From positions 19,818-83,817 of the forward strand of contig JAXHVN010000024.1 of NCBI GenBank assembly GCA_034189165.1: DNA of 64,000 nt. The letters are read 5' to 3'. Below the pieces are notes generated by a model. That model saw only the letters and a list, made by a program, of their open reading frames with translations, was not told the origin of the DNA and ran no database searches. Numbering within the stretch: position 1 is the stretch's first letter; every line of letters begins with the position of its first letter. This document shows positions 10,228 through 28,310 of this stretch, in pieces. Made by a program: the position numbers and the translations under genes. The DNA is from Pseudomonadota bacterium. Its GTDB lineage: Bacteria; Pseudomonadota; Gammaproteobacteria; UBA5335.

Positions 10228-10509
10228 GTGCGCCGGCCCAGGGCTTGGGCGCCAGCCCGGTGGCTGGCCGGCCTCGCCCGTGCCTACTCACGTTTCTATG
10301 GCCACTCAGCGGCGGCGCATCAGGCTCGTCAGCGCCAGCAGGAGGAGGATTTCCTTCGCGTGCTGCTCATCGGTCAGGCGCTGGGGATTCCCGATCCGGC
10401 CGCGTTCTACTGCCTCGAGTTGATGCCCTACCTGCTCGAGGACTATCACGCCTGGCATCGCCGGGTCGGCCTCGAGCGTGCCCCGCCCGACGGGTTCCGG
10501 TGCTGTTGA
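10228..10509 (+). CDS. Small CstA-associated protein ending in Cys-Cys (YbdD/YjiX-like), tentative
   Basis: Starts at GTG 5 nt after the cstA stop and ends ...DGFRCC-stop, like the small proteins encoded downstream of E. coli cstA/yjiY. It has an LIG..GIPD segment. The N-terminal extent is uncertain. Confidence 0.5.
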   Translation: MRRPRAWAPARWLAGLARAYSRFYGHSAAAHQARQRQQEEDFLRVLLIGQALGIPDPAAFYCLELMPYLLEDYHAWHRRVGLERAPPDGFRCC

Positions 10510-11432
10510 AGCCGCAGGCGCCGCCCGTGTGCTTCTTCGGCGGCAAGGGCGGGGTCGGCAAGACGACCTGCGCCGCGGCGATCGCCGCGGCGGTTGCGGC
10601 GCCGGCGGCCAGAACGCTGCTCGTCTCCACCGATCCGGCCCATTCGCTGCGGGACGTGCTGGCGATACCGGGCGAGCTGTCCGCGCCGACGCCCGTGGCG
10701 CCCGCTCTCGATGCGCTGGAACTGGACCCGCAGCTCGTCAAGCAGCGGTATCTCGACGATGTGCGCCGCACGCTGGAGCGGATCGCACCGCCACGATTGC
10801 TGGCCGAGGTGCGCCGGCAGGTGGCGCTCGCGGCCGCGGCGCCCGGTACGACCGAGGCCGCGCTGACCGAGGCGCTGGCGCGGCTGCTTGCCGAGGCACC
10901 GGCGCGCTATCGGCAGGTAGTGATCGACACCGCACCGACGGGGCACACCCTGCAGTTGCTGCAGGCACCGGCGGCGATGCAGGCGTGGATGGATGCGCTG
11001 CTCGCTCGGCGCAGCGAGGCGATCGATCCCGAGGTCGTGGCGCGGCTGCACCGGCGGCGTGGGTATCTGCAGGCCATGGCGGCGCTGCTCGGCGATCCAG
11101 CCCGAACGGCGTTCGTGTTGGTGACGCTGGCCGAGCCCATGGCACTGGCGGAAACGGTGCGGGCGCGCGAGGCACTGAACCGGCTGGGGTTGGCGCCGGC
11201 GGCCATCGTGGTCAACCGGCTGACCCCGGCCGACGCGGCGGGCGGCTGGGCCTCGGCGCAGCACGCGGCGCAAGCCGCCGCGCTGGGCACGTTCGGGCAG
11301 GAGATGACGTGCCCGATCATCCGGCAGGTCGCGTGCCTGCCCCGCCCGCAGGGAGTCGAGGCCCTGCGTGCGGTGGGCGAGGGCCTGCTGGAAGCCGGGC
11401 TGTTCGCGGCTACCGGCAACGGCATCGCCTGA
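10500..11432 (+). CDS. ArsA/Get3-family ATPase (single-domain)
   Basis: P-loop GGKGGVGKTT, STDPAHSL, and the ArsA signature DTAPTGHTLQLL. The GTG start overlaps the stop of the upstream small ORF (GTGCTGTTGA). Confidence 0.8.
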   Translation: MLLKPQAPPVCFFGGKGGVGKTTCAAAIAAAVAAPAARTLLVSTDPAHSLRDVLAIPGELSAPTPVAPALDALELDPQLVKQRYLDDVRRTLERIAPPRLLAEVRRQVALAAAAPGTTEAALTEALARLLAEAPARYRQVVIDTAPTGHTLQLLQAPAAMQAWMDALLARRSEAIDPEVVARLHRRRGYLQAMAALLGDPARTAFVLVTLAEPMALAETVRAREALNRLGLAPAAIVVNRLTPADAAGGWASAQHAAQAAALGTFGQEMTCPIIRQVACLPRPQGVEALRAVGEGLLEAGLFAATGNGIA

Positions 11433-11439
11433 TACAGGA

Positions 11440-11462
11440 AAAGGGCGCCCGGGGCGCCCTTT
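11440..11462. terminator. Hairpin between convergent ArsA-like gene and orphan pmoC
   Basis: AAAGGGCGCC-cgg-GGCGCCCTTT is a perfect 10-bp stem, followed by TTGT on the plus strand. Confidence 0.6.
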
Positions 11463-11517
11463 GTCGAGTCACAAGAATGGACCGGGCGCTAGAGAAGTCC
11501 GCCCGGCAGATGCGGCA

Positions 11518-12321
11518 TCAGTAGGCGGCGATGCGCTCCTCGTCGGAGATGGCCGTCAGCTTGCGCATCCGGTTCAGGCACTGCGTGACGAAGCCGCCGA
11601 TGCAGAACAGCGCCCAGCCAAGCACCACGAAGCCCCAGTGGATCGGCGCGGCGAACAGCTCTTCTGCGTAGAAGAACGTGTGGCCCCACTCGTTCAGGCC
11701 GAGGTTCGGCATGATCAGGATCGGTCCTGCGGCCATCAGCGCCAGTGGCACCGAAATGCGGTTGGCGAAGTCCGGCAGACGGGTGTGGACCCAGACGAAG
11801 CCGAATACCAGGCCAACGAGCGCCGCAGGAATCGCGAAGTAGAACAGGCCGATGTGGGTCGGCGTGAAGTCGGTATCGCGAATGGTGGTCTGGTGCCAGG
11901 CGGCATCGGCTTCCACGAACAGGCCGAAGGCGAATACCGCCAGGATGCTGGCACCGGCGAGCACCGAAAGCACCCAGTAGTAACGGCGCAGTTCCTCGTG
12001 CGGCGTGATGGCGGCGACGTTCTTGTCCCGCGTGAACCACAGTATCGGCACGATAGCGGCGCCGATCACACCGATGACGACCATCTGGATGTAGAACAGC
12101 CGCATCCAGTAGACCTGGAACTCATCCTCGAAGTAGTCGAGACCGACGGTGAACGAATACTCCTGCTGGTACCAGCGATAGATGCCGAACACCGCTGTGG
12201 CGATCGTCACCAGCAAGGCGACCCAGAGCCAGGGAACCTTCGGCGCGGGTTGATCGGCTGGCGCTGGTGCGACGTGGCGTTCGTCCTGCCGGACGCGCCC
12301 GCCTTCGATGACTGCGCTCAT
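11518..12321 (-). CDS. pmoC: Orphan PmoC/AmoC-family copper membrane monooxygenase subunit C
   Basis: 267 aa with RDTDFTPTH and NEWGHTFFYAEELFAAPIHW motifs. Collinear with the operon-encoded PmoC at 27399..28223. AGGAGGAG RBS before the ATG. Confidence 0.9.
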   Translation of the reverse strand: MSAVIEGGRVRQDERHVAPAPADQPAPKVPWLWVALLVTIATAVFGIYRWYQQEYSFTVGLDYFEDEFQVYWMRLFYIQMVVIGVIGAAIVPILWFTRDKNVAAITPHEELRRYYWVLSVLAGASILAVFAFGLFVEADAAWHQTTIRDTDFTPTHIGLFYFAIPAALVGLVFGFVWVHTRLPDFANRISVPLALMAAGPILIMPNLGLNEWGHTFFYAEELFAAPIHWGFVVLGWALFCIGGFVTQCLNRMRKLTAISDEERIAAY

Positions 12322-12378
12322 TGCGTTCTCCTCCTGTACTTGTTTTCGAAGCCACGCCGACGGGCATGGCCTCCCCTA

Positions 12379-12407
12379 TAGATAGATCGGCCTGAACGAA
12401 CGTTCAA
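12379..12407 (-). promoter_or_regulatory. Candidate sigma70 promoter of orphan pmoC (TTGAAC-17-TATCTA)
   Basis: Read on the minus strand: TTGAAC (12407..12402), a 17-nt spacer, TATCTA (12384..12379). It sits in a locally AT-rich stretch about 60 nt upstream of the ATG. Confidence 0.4.
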
Positions 12408-12462
12408 TAAGAATTTTTCGATCGCCGTTCGTCAGCCGATAGGCGGTCAGGAGGTGACGCAC

Positions 12463-13533
12463 TCAGTCGCCGAGGCAGATGCCGATCTCACGCGCGGTCT
12501 GAACGGTGTCGCAGTCCAGCGGTACCGAGCGCATCTCGGCGATCGCCGCCTCGATCGGCACCGACACCATGTCCGGCGGCTGGTAGGCCACCATCCGCCC
12601 GAACTCGCCGGCAGCCGCCGTGCGCACCGCCGCCGCGCCGAAGCGCAGCGCCAACATGCGGTCGAAGGCGGTGGGCGTGCCGCCACGCTGGATATGGCCG
12701 AGCACTACATGACGCGTTTCCTTGCCGGTCCGCTGGGCGATCTCCAGCGCGACCTTCTCGGCGATCCCGCCGAGCCGCACCTCGCGCCCGAGCTCACTGC
12801 CGGCGACCGTCAGCTCGCCGCCGCGGGGCTTGGCACCCTCGGCGACACAGACGATGGAGAAGGTGCGGCCGTTGGCCTCGCGCTGGCGGATCTTGTCGCA
12901 GACACGCTCGATGTCGAAGTCGATCTCCGGGATGAGGATCACGTCGGCGCCACCGGCGATGCCGGCGTTCAGCGCGATCCAGCCGGCATAGCGGCCCATC
13001 AGCTCCACCACCATGACCCGCCGGTGCGACTCGGCGGTGGTGTGCAGCCGGCCGATCGCCTCGGTCGCCACCGAGACGGCCGTGTCGAAGCCGAAGGTGA
13101 AGCTGGTGCAGGCGAGGTCGTTGTCGATGGTCTTCGGCACGCCCACGACCGGAATGCCCTTGTCCATGAAGCGCCGGGCGATACGCAGCGAGCCGTCGCC
13201 GCCGATCGCGATCAGCGCATCGCCCCCCAGTGCTCGGAAGCGCTCGACCACCTCGTCCGAGCGATCGACCAGCCGGGTCTGGCCGTCGATCTCCAGCGGG
13301 TACTCGAACGGGTTGCCCTTGTTCAGCGTGCCGAGGATCGTGCCGCCCAGATGGGCGATGCCGCGCACCTGATCCGGCCCGAGCGGCATCAGATCGTCCT
13401 GCAGCAGGCCCTCGTAACCGTAGCGGATGCCGGTCACGCGCCAGCCACGATGCACTGCGCCGAGCGTGAGGGCGCGGATGACGGCGTTCAGACCCGGCGC
13501 ATCGCCGCCGCCGGTGTTGACGAACAGGTGCAT
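12463..13533 (-). CDS. pfk: 6-phosphofructokinase (PfkA family)
   Basis: 356 aa with TGGGDAPGLNAVIR, IGGDGS and PKTIDNDL motifs. Confidence 0.85.
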   Translation of the reverse strand: MHLFVNTGGGDAPGLNAVIRALTLGAVHRGWRVTGIRYGYEGLLQDDLMPLGPDQVRGIAHLGGTILGTLNKGNPFEYPLEIDGQTRLVDRSDEVVERFRALGGDALIAIGGDGSLRIARRFMDKGIPVVGVPKTIDNDLACTSFTFGFDTAVSVATEAIGRLHTTAESHRRVMVVELMGRYAGWIALNAGIAGGADVILIPEIDFDIERVCDKIRQREANGRTFSIVCVAEGAKPRGGELTVAGSELGREVRLGGIAEKVALEIAQRTGKETRHVVLGHIQRGGTPTAFDRMLALRFGAAAVRTAAAGEFGRMVAYQPPDMVSVPIEAAIAEMRSVPLDCDTVQTAREIGICLGD

Positions 13534-13687
13534 GGACAGCCCTCCCCTGACTGTGACGTAGACCCCAGCTTAACGGCCGGGGGATGACCGCCGATAGCGG
13601 CGCGCCGGCTTTGGACCGATCGGACGGTAAGCCGCTATACTCGACAGGCTTTGCCATCGGATGGTGCATACCCGAGGAGACTCAAGG

Positions 13688-14845
13688 ATGGATATCGACT
13701 ACACCCAAGAGGAGCGGCAGTTTCAGCAGCAGGTGCGCGACTTCCTGGACGAGAACCTGCCGCGCGGCAACGAGATGTGGTCCAAGCGCGATGCCTGGTT
13801 CAAGTCGCTGCAGGCACAGGGCGGCTGGGATGTGCCGAAGTGGCCGGCCGAATTCGGCGGCCCGGGCTGGACGCCGGTGCAGCACTACATCTGGGATCGC
13901 GAGACCGCCGGTCGCTCGTTGCCGCCGGTGCTGCCCTTCGGTCAGGTCATGCTGGCGCCGATCCTGATGCGTTACGGCAGCAAGGAGCAGCAAGAGCGCT
14001 TCCTGCCGGACATCCGCGCCAACAAGGTCAATTGGTGCCAGGGCTATTCCGAGCCGGGCGCCGGGTCCGATCTCGCCTCGTTGAAGACACGCGCCGTGCT
14101 GAGCGAGGACGGCAGCAAGTACGTCGTCAACGGCACCAAGATCTGGACCACGATGGGGCACATGGCCCAGTGGATGTTCTGCCTCACGCGGACCAGCAGC
14201 GAGGGGCCAAAACAGGAGGGCATCACCTTCCTGCTGATCAACATGAAGACGCCGGGCATCACCGTGAAGCCGATCTTCACGCTGGGTGGCAGCCACCACG
14301 TCAACCAGGTGTTCTTCGACAATGTCGAGGTGCCGGTCGAGAACCGTGTCGGCGAGGAGGGCAAGGGCTGGACCTATGCCAAGGGCTTGTTGCAGCACGA
14401 GCGCTCCGGCATCGCCGGCATTTCCCGCACGCTCACCGCGCTGTCGAAGCTGAAGAAGAACGCCCGTTCGGTGCGCGTCGGCGACAGTACCCTGCTGGAC
14501 GACTCGAGCTACAAGCGCAAGCTGGCCGAGACCGAGATCGAGCTGCGGGCGCTGGAGTTCGCCGAGCTGCGCAGCCTGGCGGACGCACAGCAGACCGGCG
14601 AGCCGGGCACGGCCTCGTCGATCCTCAAGCTCAAGGGCACCGAGCTGCAGCAGCGGGTGCAGGAGCTGACCATCGAGGCCGCCGGGCCCTACGCGCTGAA
14701 CGCCGGCTTCAAGGAGGCCGGGCCGAAGTTCTCCAAGATGGGGATGATGATGTACCTCAATGGCCGTGCCGCGACCGTCTATGGCGGTTGCAGCGAGGTG
14801 CAGAAGGACGTCATCGCCAAGCGTGTGCTCGGCATCAAGGACTAG
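13688..14845 (+). CDS. Acyl-CoA dehydrogenase family protein
   Basis: ACAD-like N-terminus (MDIDYTQEERQF), middle beta domain and C-terminal helical domain. GAGGAG RBS before the ATG at 13688. Confidence 0.85.
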   Translation: MDIDYTQEERQFQQQVRDFLDENLPRGNEMWSKRDAWFKSLQAQGGWDVPKWPAEFGGPGWTPVQHYIWDRETAGRSLPPVLPFGQVMLAPILMRYGSKEQQERFLPDIRANKVNWCQGYSEPGAGSDLASLKTRAVLSEDGSKYVVNGTKIWTTMGHMAQWMFCLTRTSSEGPKQEGITFLLINMKTPGITVKPIFTLGGSHHVNQVFFDNVEVPVENRVGEEGKGWTYAKGLLQHERSGIAGISRTLTALSKLKKNARSVRVGDSTLLDDSSYKRKLAETEIELRALEFAELRSLADAQQTGEPGTASSILKLKGTELQQRVQELTIEAAGPYALNAGFKEAGPKFSKMGMMMYLNGRAATVYGGCSEVQKDVIAKRVLGIKD

Positions 14846-14863
14846 GCAGGGAGGCCAGCAGAG

Positions 14864-16045
14864 ATGGATTTCAATTTCACGGAAGAGCAGCAGATGCTGC
14901 GCGACAGCATCCAGAAGTTCGTGCGCGAGCACTATCCCGCCGACAGGGTCGGGGCCCGGCGCAAGGCGTTTCGCAAGGCGCCCGGCTTCGCCGAGGAGAA
15001 TTGGCAGCAGTTCGCCGATCTGGGCTGGCTGGGAGTGCCGTTTCCGGAGGAGCTCGGCGGCATCGGCGGCGATCTCGCCGACGTGATGGTGGTGATGGAG
15101 GAGCTCGGCAAGGGCCTGGTGGTCGAGCCCTACTTCCCCACCGTCGTGCTGTTCGGCAGCGCGCTGATGCTCGGCGGCAATGCCGACCAGCAGCAGTCAC
15201 TGGTGCCGCAGCTGATCGAGGGCAAGCTCAGGGGCACGCTGGCCTACATGGAAGAGCAGGCCCGCTACGAGCTTGCCGATGTGGCGACCACGGCCACTGC
15301 CCGTGACGGCAAGTACCTGCTGAACGGCACGAAGTCGCTCGTGCTGAACGCGGACAGCGCCGACTATCTGGTGGTCAGCGCGCGTACCGGGGGCGATCGC
15401 ACGGCTCGCGAGGGCATCACGCTGTTCCTCGTGCCGGCGGATGCCGAGGGCGTCAAGCGAGTCGACTACCCGACGATCGACGTGCTGCGGGCCTCGGAGG
15501 TCAGCTTCGAGAACGTCGCGGTGGGCGAGGATGCCATCCTGGGTAGCGTGGGCGAGGGGCTGGCCCTGCTGGAGGCTATCTCCCAGCGTGCCATCCTGGC
15601 GCTGGGCGCCGAGTCGGTCGGCATGATGGAAATGCTCTATCGCGACACCACCGACTACACCAGCCAGCGCGTGCAGTTCGAGAAGCCGCTCGCTGCCTTC
15701 CAGAGTGTCAAGCACCGCATCGTCGACATGTTCGTGCAGACCGAGCTCACGCGCTCGCTGCTCTACCGGGCGACGATGGAGGTGCAGGGCGAGCATGAGG
15801 ATGCCCCGCTGGATGTGCATGGCCTCAAGCACATGGTCGGCAAGGCCGGCCGCTTCGTCGGCCAGAGCGCGGTCCAGCTGCACGGTGGCATGGGCCAGAC
15901 CGAGGAACTGCGGGTCGGCCACTACTTCATCCGGCTGGCGGCCATCGATGCGCAGTTCGGCGACACCGACTACCACCTCGGCCGCTACACCGAGCTGATG
16001 CCGATCCCCGAGGGGGAGCCGGACGCGGATCTGCTGCCGTTCTAG
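14864..16045 (+). CDS. Acyl-CoA dehydrogenase family protein (second, adjacent)
   Basis: 393 aa, MDFNFTEEQQMLRDS start, QLHGGMG motif. It lies 18 nt downstream of the first ACAD. Confidence 0.85.
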   Translation: MDFNFTEEQQMLRDSIQKFVREHYPADRVGARRKAFRKAPGFAEENWQQFADLGWLGVPFPEELGGIGGDLADVMVVMEELGKGLVVEPYFPTVVLFGSALMLGGNADQQQSLVPQLIEGKLRGTLAYMEEQARYELADVATTATARDGKYLLNGTKSLVLNADSADYLVVSARTGGDRTAREGITLFLVPADAEGVKRVDYPTIDVLRASEVSFENVAVGEDAILGSVGEGLALLEAISQRAILALGAESVGMMEMLYRDTTDYTSQRVQFEKPLAAFQSVKHRIVDMFVQTELTRSLLYRATMEVQGEHEDAPLDVHGLKHMVGKAGRFVGQSAVQLHGGMGQTEELRVGHYFIRLAAIDAQFGDTDYHLGRYTELMPIPEGEPDADLLPF

Positions 16046-25199: not shown

Positions 25200-26525
25200 T
25201 CAGGCGTCCGGCCGCATGCCGGGCAGCGGTGAGCGTACCAGCTGCAGGTTGTCGAGTTGCTCTGACCCAGCGGGCGTGATGCTGAACTCCGGCGTGATGC
25301 GGGTGCCGATCTCGCGCACGTAGCGATTGCCGGCCGGGTCGTAGAAGAACAGCAGACCGGCGATGCGAAGATCCGGCTCGGCCACGATGTCCACCAGCCG
25401 CTGTTCCTCCCAGATCGCATCTTCCAGCTGCAGCGTCAGCCGCGTGCTGGCTCCCGGCGCCAGCGTCCGGCGGTTCACGCTGAGGCTATCCGGGGCCACC
25501 ATGTCGTAGTCGTCCTCGCGCCGCGCCTCGACGACCTCACCGTTGGTGAAGCGCACGTAGCCGGCCACGAACTGCCCCACGGCCAGCGGCGTCTCGGTGC
25601 CGTTGGCGACGGTGAGATCCAGGGTGAGCGTGCGCCGCGGCAGGTTGAAGCGGGCCTGGTGGATCTCGATGTCGATCGGCGCCTGTGCGCCCGGCAGTGG
25701 CAGCACCGGCGCCTCCACGCGCCCGGTCTGCAGCGGCATGGTGATGGGATAGCGAGCGTTCGCCCACAGCGCGATACCGGCGGTCAGCCCCAGCACCAGC
25801 GCCAGGAACAGCCCGCTGACGATGATGTCCTGCCAGCCGATCAGGCGGCGTTCCGCCTCCGCCTCGCCCAGCTCCTGCACCGCCACATAGCGTCGCATCA
25901 TCACCGGCAGGCGACGGAACCAGTACCCGATCCACAGCAACCCGACCAGCAGCCACACCAGATGCACGCCCGACATGGTGCGCAGCCCGTACTGCTCGAC
26001 CTCGACGCGCTCGCCGTTCAGCAGCACCGCCTCGTTGACGAAATGCGCCGCATCGCCGGTGATCTCGACGAAATGCGCCGGTCCGATCACCGGCCCGGCC
26101 TCCCAGACGTTCACCAGCGGATGCACGTGCCAGATGCCCGGCACACGCGCCTTCAGTTTCACCTCGTAATCGTAGAACTCGCCCCGCCGCAGCGCCGTGG
26201 ACTGCAGCTGACGCATGCCATTGATGGTGGTATCGAGCCGAATGAAGGTCGGCCCCGGCACGCCGATGTTCAGGAATACCCACTCCTCCGGCTTGGCCAC
26301 GTAGTCCGGCCAGTGTTCGGAGACCTTGAAGCGCCCACGCACGGTCACCACCTCGTTTACCGCTACTTGGCGGGGCTCGATCTGCGTGTCGAACCAGTGG
26401 ATGGTACGCATGCGGATGCCCGCCATCTGAGCGATCTCGCCGTGGGCGAAGGTGGCCGGCGGCAACGCCAGCAGCAGGAGCAGCGGGGCGGCGAGCAGGC
26501 ACCGCACGAGGCGTGGACCGGACAT
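25200..26525 (-). CDS. pmoB: Copper membrane monooxygenase subunit B (PmoB/AmoB family)
   Basis: Signal peptide ...PPATFA followed by HGE, then RTIHW, WHVHP, two central TM helices and a C-terminal cupredoxin-like domain (AGLLFFYDPAGNR). I chose the internal ATG at 26525 of ORF 25200..27242, with a GGAGG RBS. Confidence 0.9.
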   Translation of the reverse strand: MSGPRLVRCLLAAPLLLLLALPPATFAHGEIAQMAGIRMRTIHWFDTQIEPRQVAVNEVVTVRGRFKVSEHWPDYVAKPEEWVFLNIGVPGPTFIRLDTTINGMRQLQSTALRRGEFYDYEVKLKARVPGIWHVHPLVNVWEAGPVIGPAHFVEITGDAAHFVNEAVLLNGERVEVEQYGLRTMSGVHLVWLLVGLLWIGYWFRRLPVMMRRYVAVQELGEAEAERRLIGWQDIIVSGLFLALVLGLTAGIALWANARYPITMPLQTGRVEAPVLPLPGAQAPIDIEIHQARFNLPRRTLTLDLTVANGTETPLAVGQFVAGYVRFTNGEVVEARREDDYDMVAPDSLSVNRRTLAPGASTRLTLQLEDAIWEEQRLVDIVAEPDLRIAGLLFFYDPAGNRYVREIGTRITPEFSITPAGSEQLDNLQLVRSPLPGMRPDA

Positions 26526-26536
26526 TGGCGGCCTCC

Positions 26537-27325
26537 TCAGAGCAGCTTGGTCATGAAGGCCGGTCGGGCGCTCTTCGAGCCGATCCACACGAAGACGTAG
26601 TACACGAGGATCGCGAAGAATCCGGCGACGAAGGCGGTGACCGGCGCGACATGGCCACCGAAGGTGCGCAGGGTGCCGTATTCGATGATGCGCACATATT
26701 CGGGCATCGCCGTGCGGATGTACTGGAAGCCCATGTAGTCGGCCAGCGTGATCACCGATTCGCCCACCTGCACCGGCATGTGCATGGGCGCCACGGTCGG
26801 CCAGTTCATGGGATAGAACAGCAGCCCGAAGAAGAATCCGCCGACCAGGCCGGTGATGGCGAAGCTGCGCGTGATCAGCAGCGTCGCGTCGAGGAACACC
26901 GCGGCGCCGATCCACACCTCCGGCATCACCCAGTTCATCGGAAAGCCGGTGAACAGGTGGAAGTTCACGTAGCGGCTGATCATCTGCGAGAGCAGGTAGC
27001 CCACGGCGACCGCCGTGGCCGCCACCGGCAGCTTGAAGTACTTCCAGAAGGCGTAGGTGAGCACCGCCGGCAGCGTCAGCAGTAGCAGCGGCGTCAGCAG
27101 CGGCCACCAGCGGCGATCGCGCCAGTCCTGCCAGTAGCTCCAATCGCCGATCGTGAGCGCCCCGAGGAACACGGCGGCGCCGCCGATGAGGATCGCGATC
27201 AGCGGGAAGAACATCAGGTCGATGTTCTTCCATGCCTCCCACTGCTCGCGCGCCGTGTGCAGCGCCGGCCTGGCCGGCGGCGGCGCGGCGTCTGCCTGCG
27301 GATTGAGTTCCAGAGCCATCATCAC
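26537..27325 (-). CDS. pmoA: Copper membrane monooxygenase subunit A (PmoA/AmoA family)
   Basis: 262 aa, collinear with PmoA (GDWSYWQDWRDRRWW, FYPMNWP, PEYVRIIEYGTLRTFG). GGAGGTG RBS. Confidence 0.9.
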   Translation of the reverse strand: MMMALELNPQADAAPPPARPALHTAREQWEAWKNIDLMFFPLIAILIGGAAVFLGALTIGDWSYWQDWRDRRWWPLLTPLLLLTLPAVLTYAFWKYFKLPVAATAVAVGYLLSQMISRYVNFHLFTGFPMNWVMPEVWIGAAVFLDATLLITRSFAITGLVGGFFFGLLFYPMNWPTVAPMHMPVQVGESVITLADYMGFQYIRTAMPEYVRIIEYGTLRTFGGHVAPVTAFVAGFFAILVYYVFVWIGSKSARPAFMTKLL

Positions 27326-27398
27326 CTCCTGACGGTGGCGCCGTGGCGGGCAGTGGCCCGCGCGGCCGGCGCCCGGCGCATCCCTGTGTCTGCTGGGC

Positions 27399-28223
27399 CT
27401 AGTGCTCGGCGGCCAGGCGTTCGATTTCCTCGTAGGAGACGACGTGCATCAGCTCGCGCATGCGCTGCAGGCACTGCACGACGAAGCCGATCAGGAACAC
27501 GAGGAAGAAGCCGGCCAGCACGAAGAACCAGTGCACCGGCGCGGCGAACAGTTCTTCCGCATAGAAAAAGGTGTGCGCCCATTCGTTGAAGGCCACCACC
27601 GGGCCGACCATCATGAAGCCGAGGATGGCGACCGAGAACGGCACCGAGATGCGGCTGGTGAAGATCGGCAGGCGCGTGTGCACCCAGATCCACGCCAGGA
27701 TCAGCGCGCCCCAGGCGACGGGAATGCCGAGGTAGAACAGGAAGATGTGCGTCGGCGTGAAGTCGGTATCGCGCACCACCACCTGATGCCAGGCGGCATC
27801 CGCCTCGGTCAGCAGCCCCAGCGCGCTGACGATGGCGATCGCGGCGACGGTGAGGATGCCGAACATCGCGTAGAACCGGCGCAGTTCATCGTGCGGCGAG
27901 AGCGACATGATGTCGCGGTCCCGCGTCAGCCACAGCGCCAGCGCGCCGAGTCCGCCGAGCACCGGGATCGCGATGATCTCGGTGTAGAAGATCGACATCC
28001 AGTAGGTCTGGAACTCGTCGGAAAACGAGTCCATGCCGACGGACCAGGAAAAGGCGTGCTGGTACCACTTGACGGCCGTCAGCGCCGCGAACACCAGGGC
28101 AGTGATGCCCAGCGCCCAGCCCCAGGGGACGCGGGGCGGCCCCTCGGTCGGTGGGGGCGCATCGGGCCGCCGTGCGAGTGGACGGCTCCGGCTGGTACCG
28201 ATGTCCTGCGTGATGCTGCTCAT
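27399..28223 (-). CDS. pmoC: Copper membrane monooxygenase subunit C (PmoC/AmoC family)
   Basis: 274 aa from the ATG at 28223 (AGGAGAG RBS), with VRDTDFTPTH and NEWAHTFFYAEELFAAPVHW motifs. Confidence 0.9.
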   Translation of the reverse strand: MSSITQDIGTSRSRPLARRPDAPPPTEGPPRVPWGWALGITALVFAALTAVKWYQHAFSWSVGMDSFSDEFQTYWMSIFYTEIIAIPVLGGLGALALWLTRDRDIMSLSPHDELRRFYAMFGILTVAAIAIVSALGLLTEADAAWHQVVVRDTDFTPTHIFLFYLGIPVAWGALILAWIWVHTRLPIFTSRISVPFSVAILGFMMVGPVVAFNEWAHTFFYAEELFAAPVHWFFVLAGFFLVFLIGFVVQCLQRMRELMHVVSYEEIERLAAEH

Positions 28224-28281: not shown

Positions 28282-28310
28282 ACATATCGACTGACTGAAC
28301 GGTCGTTTAA
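28282..28310 (-). promoter_or_regulatory. Candidate promoter of pmoCAB (TTAAAC-17-ATATGT), sharing a sequence block with the orphan pmoC promoter
   Basis: The minus strand reads ATTAAACGACCGTTCAGTCAGTCGATATGT, compared with ATTGAACGTTCGTTCAGGCCGATCTATCTA at 12379..12410. An alternative TTGACA-17-TAGCCA lies about 30 nt further upstream. Confidence 0.35.

Follow-up and report, generated by a model that had tools for sequence, protein, structure and literature searches.

Copper membrane monooxygenases (CuMMOs) catalyze the first step in the oxidation of methane, ammonia, and short hydrocarbons. The location of their active site and the basis of their substrate preference are still debated; current evidence favors the C subunit, and the CuC and CuD sites on this subunit are now thought to be the place of substrate oxidation.

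Bacterial enzymes of this family are described as encoded by xmoCAB operons, and singleton xmoC genes are acknowledged alongside them (Khadka et al. 2018, PMC6215863). In Nitrosomonas europaea, amoC3 exists as such a singleton, a nonoperonal, diverged C gene beside complete operons of an enzyme whose active site probably resides in subunit C (PMC13058606). In Nitrososphaera viennensis and soil ammonia-oxidizing archaea, A and B lie apart from C, several C paralogues accompany a single A and B, and "different activity profiles" have been proposed for the extra AmoC homologues (PMC10030591). Within the lineage considered here, UBA5335/Candidatus Macondimonas, phmCAB operons with additional phmC copies, the same kind of gene as ours, have been reported, and the part of that preprint available to us suggests a "broader range of substrate affinities" for the extra copies (bioRxiv 10.1101/2023.07.16.546273). 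Singleton pmoC and amoC genes are well known, and extra phmC genes in the UBA5335 lineage are already published. The question taken up here is what one such gene does in a genome in which a pmoA-pmoB pair stands without a pmoC.

The gene lies in a 64,000-nucleotide stretch of DNA (the window), part of contig C17 in the genome of an uncultured gammaproteobacterium of the Macondimonas family (assembly of 2.29 Mb, 70% GC, 99.8% complete); the best named relatives of its proteins are in Candidatus Macondimonas and other gammaproteobacterial metagenome-assembled genomes (MAGs). A preliminary description of the window had placed a stand-alone, 267-residue PmoC/AmoC gene between an ArsA-like gene and pfk, and this is borne out: the open reading frame begins with ATG, meets a convergent ArsA/Get3-like ATPase gene, and is preceded on its own strand by pfk (phosphofructokinase) across a spacer of 141 nt, which, together with the gene, makes up the interval ending at 12462 in that description. 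Residues 31-256 of the product, hereafter the orphan PmoC, match Pfam AmoC (PF04896) with an E value of 1.4e-71 and 241.1 bits, against a curated cutoff of 26.7 bits, and span model positions 19-242 of 245; by both score and model coverage, the protein is a CuMMO subunit C.

The orphan aligns with the solved PmoC chains 1yew_C and 7ev9_C over 226 residues without gaps (E = 5.6e-58), a match that already settles its predicted fold as that of PmoC. In the gap-free alignment, D139, H143, and H156 fall on D156, H160, and H173 of Methylococcus capsulatus Bath PmoC, which we take to be the Asp/His/His ligands of the CuC site, and N210, H214, and H228 fall on N227, H231, and H245, presumably the Asn/His/His ligands of the CuD site. 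Both of the metal-site motifs quoted earlier for this gene are present, the ligands of both sites are intact, and all six residues are invariant in 38 PmoC sequences of the family. F132 and T145 of the orphan are fixed in its own orthologue group (S1, below) and differ from all other PmoC clades; T145 is two residues past the CuC histidine H143. On the NCBIfam equivalog models for bona fide AMO and pMMO C subunits, the orphan falls below the cutoff and outside the family in both cases (253.1 bits vs. 319 for NF041641, AmoC_BACT; 229.6 vs. 280.6 bits for TIGR03078), and the operon PmoC of the window scores still lower on the same models. Such scores fit a hydrocarbon-type enzyme, not an ammonia or methane enzyme.

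The strong ribosome-binding site claimed for the gene is there (AGGAGGAG) and is conserved in the sister-species contig L094. The claim of a "promoter-like region" does not hold in the same way: a consensus scan of 11300-12700 found no sigma-70 promoter, although the spacer does contain a conserved palindrome, to which we return below. No intrinsic terminator passed a strict consensus scan of the same interval. The RNA fold of 11430-11520 on the minus strand (-39 kcal/mol, z = -3.1) includes a hairpin that is a probable weak bidirectional terminator, common to the orphan pmoC and the convergent ArsA-like gene; an Rfam search of the orphan region gave only an insignificant match (E = 0.91), on this hairpin. 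The 5' leader, between palindrome and ribosome-binding site, also holds an 8-bp hairpin (GCCAUGCC-CGUC-GGCGUGGC, positions 12343-12362, minus strand), partly kept in the sister species with one compensating change.

Table 1. Features of the window (positions count from its first letter; a dot marks a feature without strand).
Feature	Position	Strand	Basis or remark
ArsA/Get3-like ATPase gene	10245..11432	+	
GC-rich 10-bp hairpin followed by UUUU	11436..11462	-	56 nt past the orphan pmoC stop; RNA fold
S1-clade singleton pmoC/phmC, encoding the 267-aa C (gamma) subunit of a hydrocarbon-type CuMMO	11518..12321	-	ORF, Pfam, alignment, dN/dS
Shine-Dalgarno sequence AGGAGGAG	12328..12335	-	6 nt upstream of the orphan pmoC ATG; read from the sequence
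Palindrome TGAACGAACGTTCA (extended form, coding strand: TATTGAACGTTCGTTCAGGC)	12393..12406	.	71 nt upstream of the orphan pmoC ATG
pfk (phosphofructokinase)	12463..13533	-	
pmoB of the a-type operon	about 25200..26483	-	AmoB match
pmoA of the a-type operon	26537..27325	-	AmoA match
pmoC of the a-type operon	27399..28223	-	49% identical to the orphan PmoC
One-mismatch palindrome TGAACGGTCGTTTA	28296..28309	.	72 nt upstream of the operon pmoC ATG

A profile search of the whole genome returned three AmoC, two AmoA, and two AmoB matches. The pmoCAB operon of the window (about 25200..28223, minus strand) encodes what we call the a-type enzyme. Its pmoC is 15.1 kb from the orphan, in agreement with the 15 kb first given, and the two proteins are 49% identical over 251 residues by BLASTP, which matches the earlier estimate by eye of about half. 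A second singleton pmoC stands alone on contig C3, flanked by hydrolase genes, and its product shares 70% identity with the orphan and 49% with the operon copy. Genes for a BD-FAE esterase and a VWA/CoxE-like protein accompany the C3 singleton on the opposite strand (L002 2384-3663), and on an unrelated metagenome contig (L107/L108), the same two kinds of gene come after pmoC and a gene for a MoxR-type AAA ATPase.

Contig C52 carries the second pmoA-pmoB pair, which we call b-type, and no pmoC. An assembly gap (N) interrupts pmoA_b/pmoB_b; upstream of the pair are a tRNA-Thr(TGT) gene and a gene for a type III pantothenate kinase (CoaX), and downstream are a gene for a 208-aa protein and two multicopper oxidase genes (order in L008 4527..9690: tRNA-Thr(TGT), palindrome, pmoA_b, pmoB_b, 208-aa gene, two multicopper oxidase genes). 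The a-type and b-type PmoA proteins are about 54% identical. The 208-aa protein has a signal peptide and a C-terminal helix, as in a secreted or membrane protein, and no Pfam or NCBIfam match. Its homologues lie 3' of pmoB in 19 of the 20 loci fetched with PmoA_b, that is, in all that reach past pmoB; these loci come from several orders and include the sole a-type operon among them (L092). We regard it as a candidate for a fourth subunit or a PmoD-like partner.

The absence of a C gene beside pmoAB_b is not peculiar to one assembly. All 11 family relatives have one pmoCAB operon, one C-less pmoAB pair, and two to five singleton pmoC genes, with three to six AmoC matches each and exactly two AmoA matches, except for one in G006 (93% complete). 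The a-type pmoA is preceded by pmoC in 10 of 11 loci (the other, L064, is too short to show it), and within the 1.4-5 kb available upstream of the b-type pmoA in ten loci, there is no pmoC. From the other side, when ±8 kb around every pmoC was inspected in G001, G002, and G003, just one pmoC per genome had pmoA or pmoB nearby. This is the arrangement of a dispersed CuMMO, as in Nitrososphaeraceae, in which A and B are unlinked from C and several C paralogues are present.

The immediate surroundings of the orphan are conserved over a much shorter range. The sister-species contig keeps the order ArsA-pmoC-pfk-ACAD-ACAD, where ACAD denotes acyl-CoA dehydrogenase. The ArsA-pmoC-pfk order is kept only in this species, whose orphan protein is 94% identical; outside the genus, the S1 orthologues of G001 and G003 lack it. 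The acyl-CoA dehydrogenase pair of the window lies at 13661-16045, just past pfk. In a sister genus (L044, G003:C1:34700-53300; L048, G002), two S2 pmoC genes are arranged divergently, and one of them is directly upstream of, and on the same strand as, orthologues of this pair (80% identical). A loose association of pmoC with acyl-CoA dehydrogenase genes recurs with different pmoC clades.

How old is the orphan? In a maximum-likelihood tree of 54 PmoC sequences, those of the family fall into four orthologue groups: the operon copies, S1, S2, and S3. S1 (support, 98/91) comprises the orphan, the sister-species protein, and one protein each from G001, G003, G004, G005, G006, G008, G009, and G011, and at least 9 of the 12 family genomes, from three genera, have one S1 copy each; G002 (99% complete) has five pmoC genes and no S1 member among them. 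S2 comprises the C3 singleton and one to three copies per relative, and S3 has no member in the source genome. The orphan has an orthologue group of its own, kept across three genera; therefore it is an old, vertically inherited singleton, and its description as an old paralogue rather than a recent duplicate stands. Against the sister-species gene, dN/dS is 0.12 at a dS of 0.30. The orphan pmoC is a real, intact gene under purifying selection.

These data also dispose of the idea that the orphan is an unused duplicate heading for decay. The absence of S1 from G002 and the scores of the orphan below the NCBIfam equivalog cutoffs could be read that way, but the operon PmoC does even worse on the same models, and the low dN/dS, the orthologues in three genera, the invariant ligands, and the conserved ribosome-binding site and upstream element all speak against it. 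Selection and conservation therefore exclude a decaying duplicate for practical purposes, and we give this idea almost no credence.

Which A and B proteins would the orphan work with? A scan with PmoA_b, using one genome per species, also found loci in other orders. Six MAGs from outside the family (one unclassified gammaproteobacterium, one Moraxellaceae, two Thiotrichaceae, and two Pseudomonadales) have b-type pmoAB (65-72% identical) directly 3' of a pmoC, with a homologue of the 208-aa gene after pmoAB. The PmoC proteins of these b-type operons are closer to the orphan (51-61% identity) and to the C3 singleton (57-63%) than to the a-type PmoC (42-47%). In a Thiotrichaceae MAG (L084, 1751-4197), two tandem singleton-type pmoC genes lie upstream of b-type pmoAB, the proximal one split into two frames by a frameshift or a sequencing error.

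In a second tree, the a-type PmoC proteins form a clade (97/95) that holds the a-type operon of another MAG and excludes the orphan, while four PmoC proteins linked to b-type operons group with the S2 singletons (93/91). Support is 77/90 for the split that sets the a-type clade and the outgroup apart from all singletons and b-linked proteins; constraining S1 to group with the a-type costs 7.1 lnL units, with a p-AU of 0.055, so that rejection at 0.05 is not reached. The tree thus ties the S2 singleton clade firmly to the b-type C lineage and places the orphan's own clade, S1, only moderately on the b-side. The b-linked proteins nest with S2, not S1; S2 is therefore the more direct candidate partner. 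G002 lacks S1, and S1 is therefore dispensable for the b-type enzyme, to which it could be auxiliary. Among the three closest homologues of S1 on long contigs outside the family (64-67% identical), none is in cis with pmoAB; all are singletons.

Taken together, these observations are consistent with a model that starts from an ancestral operon of pmoC, pmoA_b, pmoB_b, and the 208-aa gene. In the Macondimonas family, the C gene of this operon would have been duplicated and dispersed, and pmoAB_b would therefore have come to depend on C subunits made in trans. The two to five C genes of the b-lineage, scattered around the chromosome, would be translated separately. Of these, S2 would be the most direct descendant of the ancestral b-operon pmoC and the closer to it, with S1 as a sister isoform. 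The cis b-type operons elsewhere begin with a singleton-type pmoC, and the singletons are therefore most likely trans C subunits of the C-less pmoAB: the S1 orphan and the S2 singleton would most likely assemble in trans with PmoA_b and PmoB_b, and assembly with the a-type pair may also occur. We posit, as the reading that we favor by a modest degree of belief, that the orphan, rather than being a copy of the C subunit next door in the operon, serves a particulate hydrocarbon monooxygenase as a functional, alternative C (gamma) subunit of the b-lineage, assembled in trans with PmoA_b/PmoB_b and coregulated with the other CuMMO genes.

Could PmoC instead act alone? The orphan might be a membrane copper-binding, copper-sensing, or regulatory protein that works without A and B. 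Singleton pmoC genes outnumber pmoAB pairs (3-6 vs. 2 in the family and 10 vs. 2 in G027), and close homologues from elsewhere likewise stand alone, in unrelated contexts; these numbers are what one might expect of a freestanding protein. On the other hand, the orphan fits, over its full length and without gaps, the PmoC of alpha3-beta3-gamma3 complexes, with both copper sites kept, and we know of no independent function of PmoC. We consider a solitary role improbable. G027, which is from another family of the same class, has ten AmoC and two AmoA matches, and both of its pmoA genes have a pmoC in cis; large singleton-pmoC expansions are not confined to the Macondimonas family.

A further link among the dispersed genes is a palindrome in their upstream regions, seen when four of these regions were read side by side. 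The palindrome TGAACGnnCGTTCA has four exact copies in the 2.29-Mb genome, against 0.05 expected, and the window alone has two matches with at most one mismatch, against 0.08 expected from shuffles. Beyond the two sites in Table 1, an exact copy lies upstream of the C3 singleton, with a one-mismatch copy 5 nt further on; an exact copy lies 136 nt upstream of the pmoA_b ATG on C52; and two one-mismatch copies (C21:669-717) lie upstream of alkB on C21 (C21:798-2048). This alkB encodes an AlkB-type (FA_desaturase family) alkane hydroxylase and is one of six alkB paralogues. With a weight matrix of the extended consensus TCTTGAACGnnCGTTCAAGA, the top seven matches in the genome are all upstream of CuMMO units or alkB, and the site of the orphan is the second best; a weaker match precedes a second alkB paralogue (C40:26325).

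The element is kept among relatives. S1 orthologues in three genera have it upstream with zero to two mismatches, and the a-type operons of relatives have an exact or one-mismatch copy at the same place. Many of these sites come from loci picked for their CuMMO genes, and the unbiased scans are those of the source genome, G001, and G003. In the whole-genome scans, G003 has nine sites against three for a control pattern, and G001 has eight against four; the sites in these two genomes include the b-type pmoA, an S2 singleton, the a-type operon (G003), an alkB orthologue (G003), and an aldehyde dehydrogenase gene (G001). Based on this distribution, the palindrome is a candidate operator or promoter element common to a CuMMO/alkB regulon; copper and iron alkane oxidases may thus belong to a single regulon. 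In our model, a putative dimeric regulator binding TCTTGAACGnnCGTTCAAGA would switch all CuMMO units and alkB together.

The fourth exact copy (C50:17082) is about 60 nt upstream of a gene for an HxlR-family regulator (C50:16564-17095), and its flanks do not fit the extended consensus. We considered and rejected this gene as the regulator: only 4 of the 12 family genomes have it, and G002 and G003, each 99% complete, do not. A copy at the end of a contig in G001 matches part of it with 97% identity, which looks like recent horizontal transfer. An SOS box of the Cheo type (GAAC-N4-GTTC) was likewise rejected as the identity of the palindrome, since upstream of lexA and recA even the best match differs at five positions.

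The palindrome bears directly on whether the orphan is a stress or repair spare like amoC3 of N. europaea, one that would replace a damaged C subunit in any complex, the a-type included, upon starvation, heat, or oxidative damage. A stress role is documented for singleton, diverged C copies in ammonia oxidizers (PMC13058606), and the orphan is nonoperonal, intact, and under selection, with an upstream element and a ribosome-binding site of its own. Yet that element is the same one found at the main CuMMO units and at alkB, with no distinct stress-type signal; its sharing points to putative coregulation with hydrocarbon oxidation, not to a separate stress circuit. Divergence also argues against a spare: the orphan shares just 49% identity with the a-type C, well below the 67.5% between amoC3 and amoC1/2 (PMC13058606). 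Finally, the definition of an amoC3-type gene, a nonoperonal copy beside operons that each have their own C, does not apply here because one of the two pmoAB pairs is without its own C, in this genome and in all 11 relatives, and that pair needs a C subunit in trans anyway. A spare for the neighboring operon is probably not the best reading, and we regard a stress role of this kind as unlikely, although less so than a solitary one.

If the orphan is a C subunit assembled in trans with PmoA_b/PmoB_b, as we favor, what would the cell gain from several of them? The C subunit probably carries the substrate oxidation site, and for this reason the C isoforms may tune the substrate range: replacing one isoform by another would alter the catalytic pocket and broaden or shift the range of hydrocarbons. 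We speculate, more tentatively than for the trans assembly itself and with some doubt, that the system is a modular CuMMO, in which a C-less pmoAB core would draw on a pool of two to five interchangeable catalytic C subunits under one operator shared with pmoCAB and alkB. If this were true, it would be a bacterial case of subunit swapping that covers many hydrocarbons with one scaffold.

Several consequences follow for the study of these organisms. The lineage would be a natural experiment on the role of the C subunit, with one A/B scaffold and several diverged, putatively coregulated C genes. Counts of pmoCAB operons would understate the enzyme repertoire of these oil-degrading bacteria, and an "orphan" pmoC and a C-less pmoAB should be read together in annotation. 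The shared palindrome provides a starting point from which to identify the regulator of hydrocarbon oxidation in a group that is ecologically important but uncultured or poorly studied.

Set against the described systems, three elements appear to be new relative to the literature searched: the conserved C-less pmoAB pair, the assignment of singletons to the lineage of the C gene that the b-type operon lost, and the palindrome common to CuMMO genes and alkB. The report on the same lineage (bioRxiv 10.1101/2023.07.16.546273), in the part available to us, has no account of a C-less pmoAB, of an orthologue grouping, or of a shared palindrome. The b-type pmoAB pairs of the Macondimonas family, together with loci L088 and L089 from other orders, are exceptions to the statement of Khadka et al. 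(2018, PMC6215863) on bacterial operons. In N. europaea, every amoAB has its own amoC and amoC3 has stayed at 67.5% identity to the operon copies; here, a C-less pmoAB is present, the identity is 49%, and the orphan, unlike amoC3, has an upstream element common to the main CuMMO units. The system of N. viennensis is archaeal and ammonia oxidizing, with the extra proteins AmoX/Y/Z and no common promoter motif (PMC10030591), whereas that of the Macondimonas family is bacterial and hydrocarbon type, keeps a classical pmoCAB operon, and has a palindrome in common among its dispersed genes.
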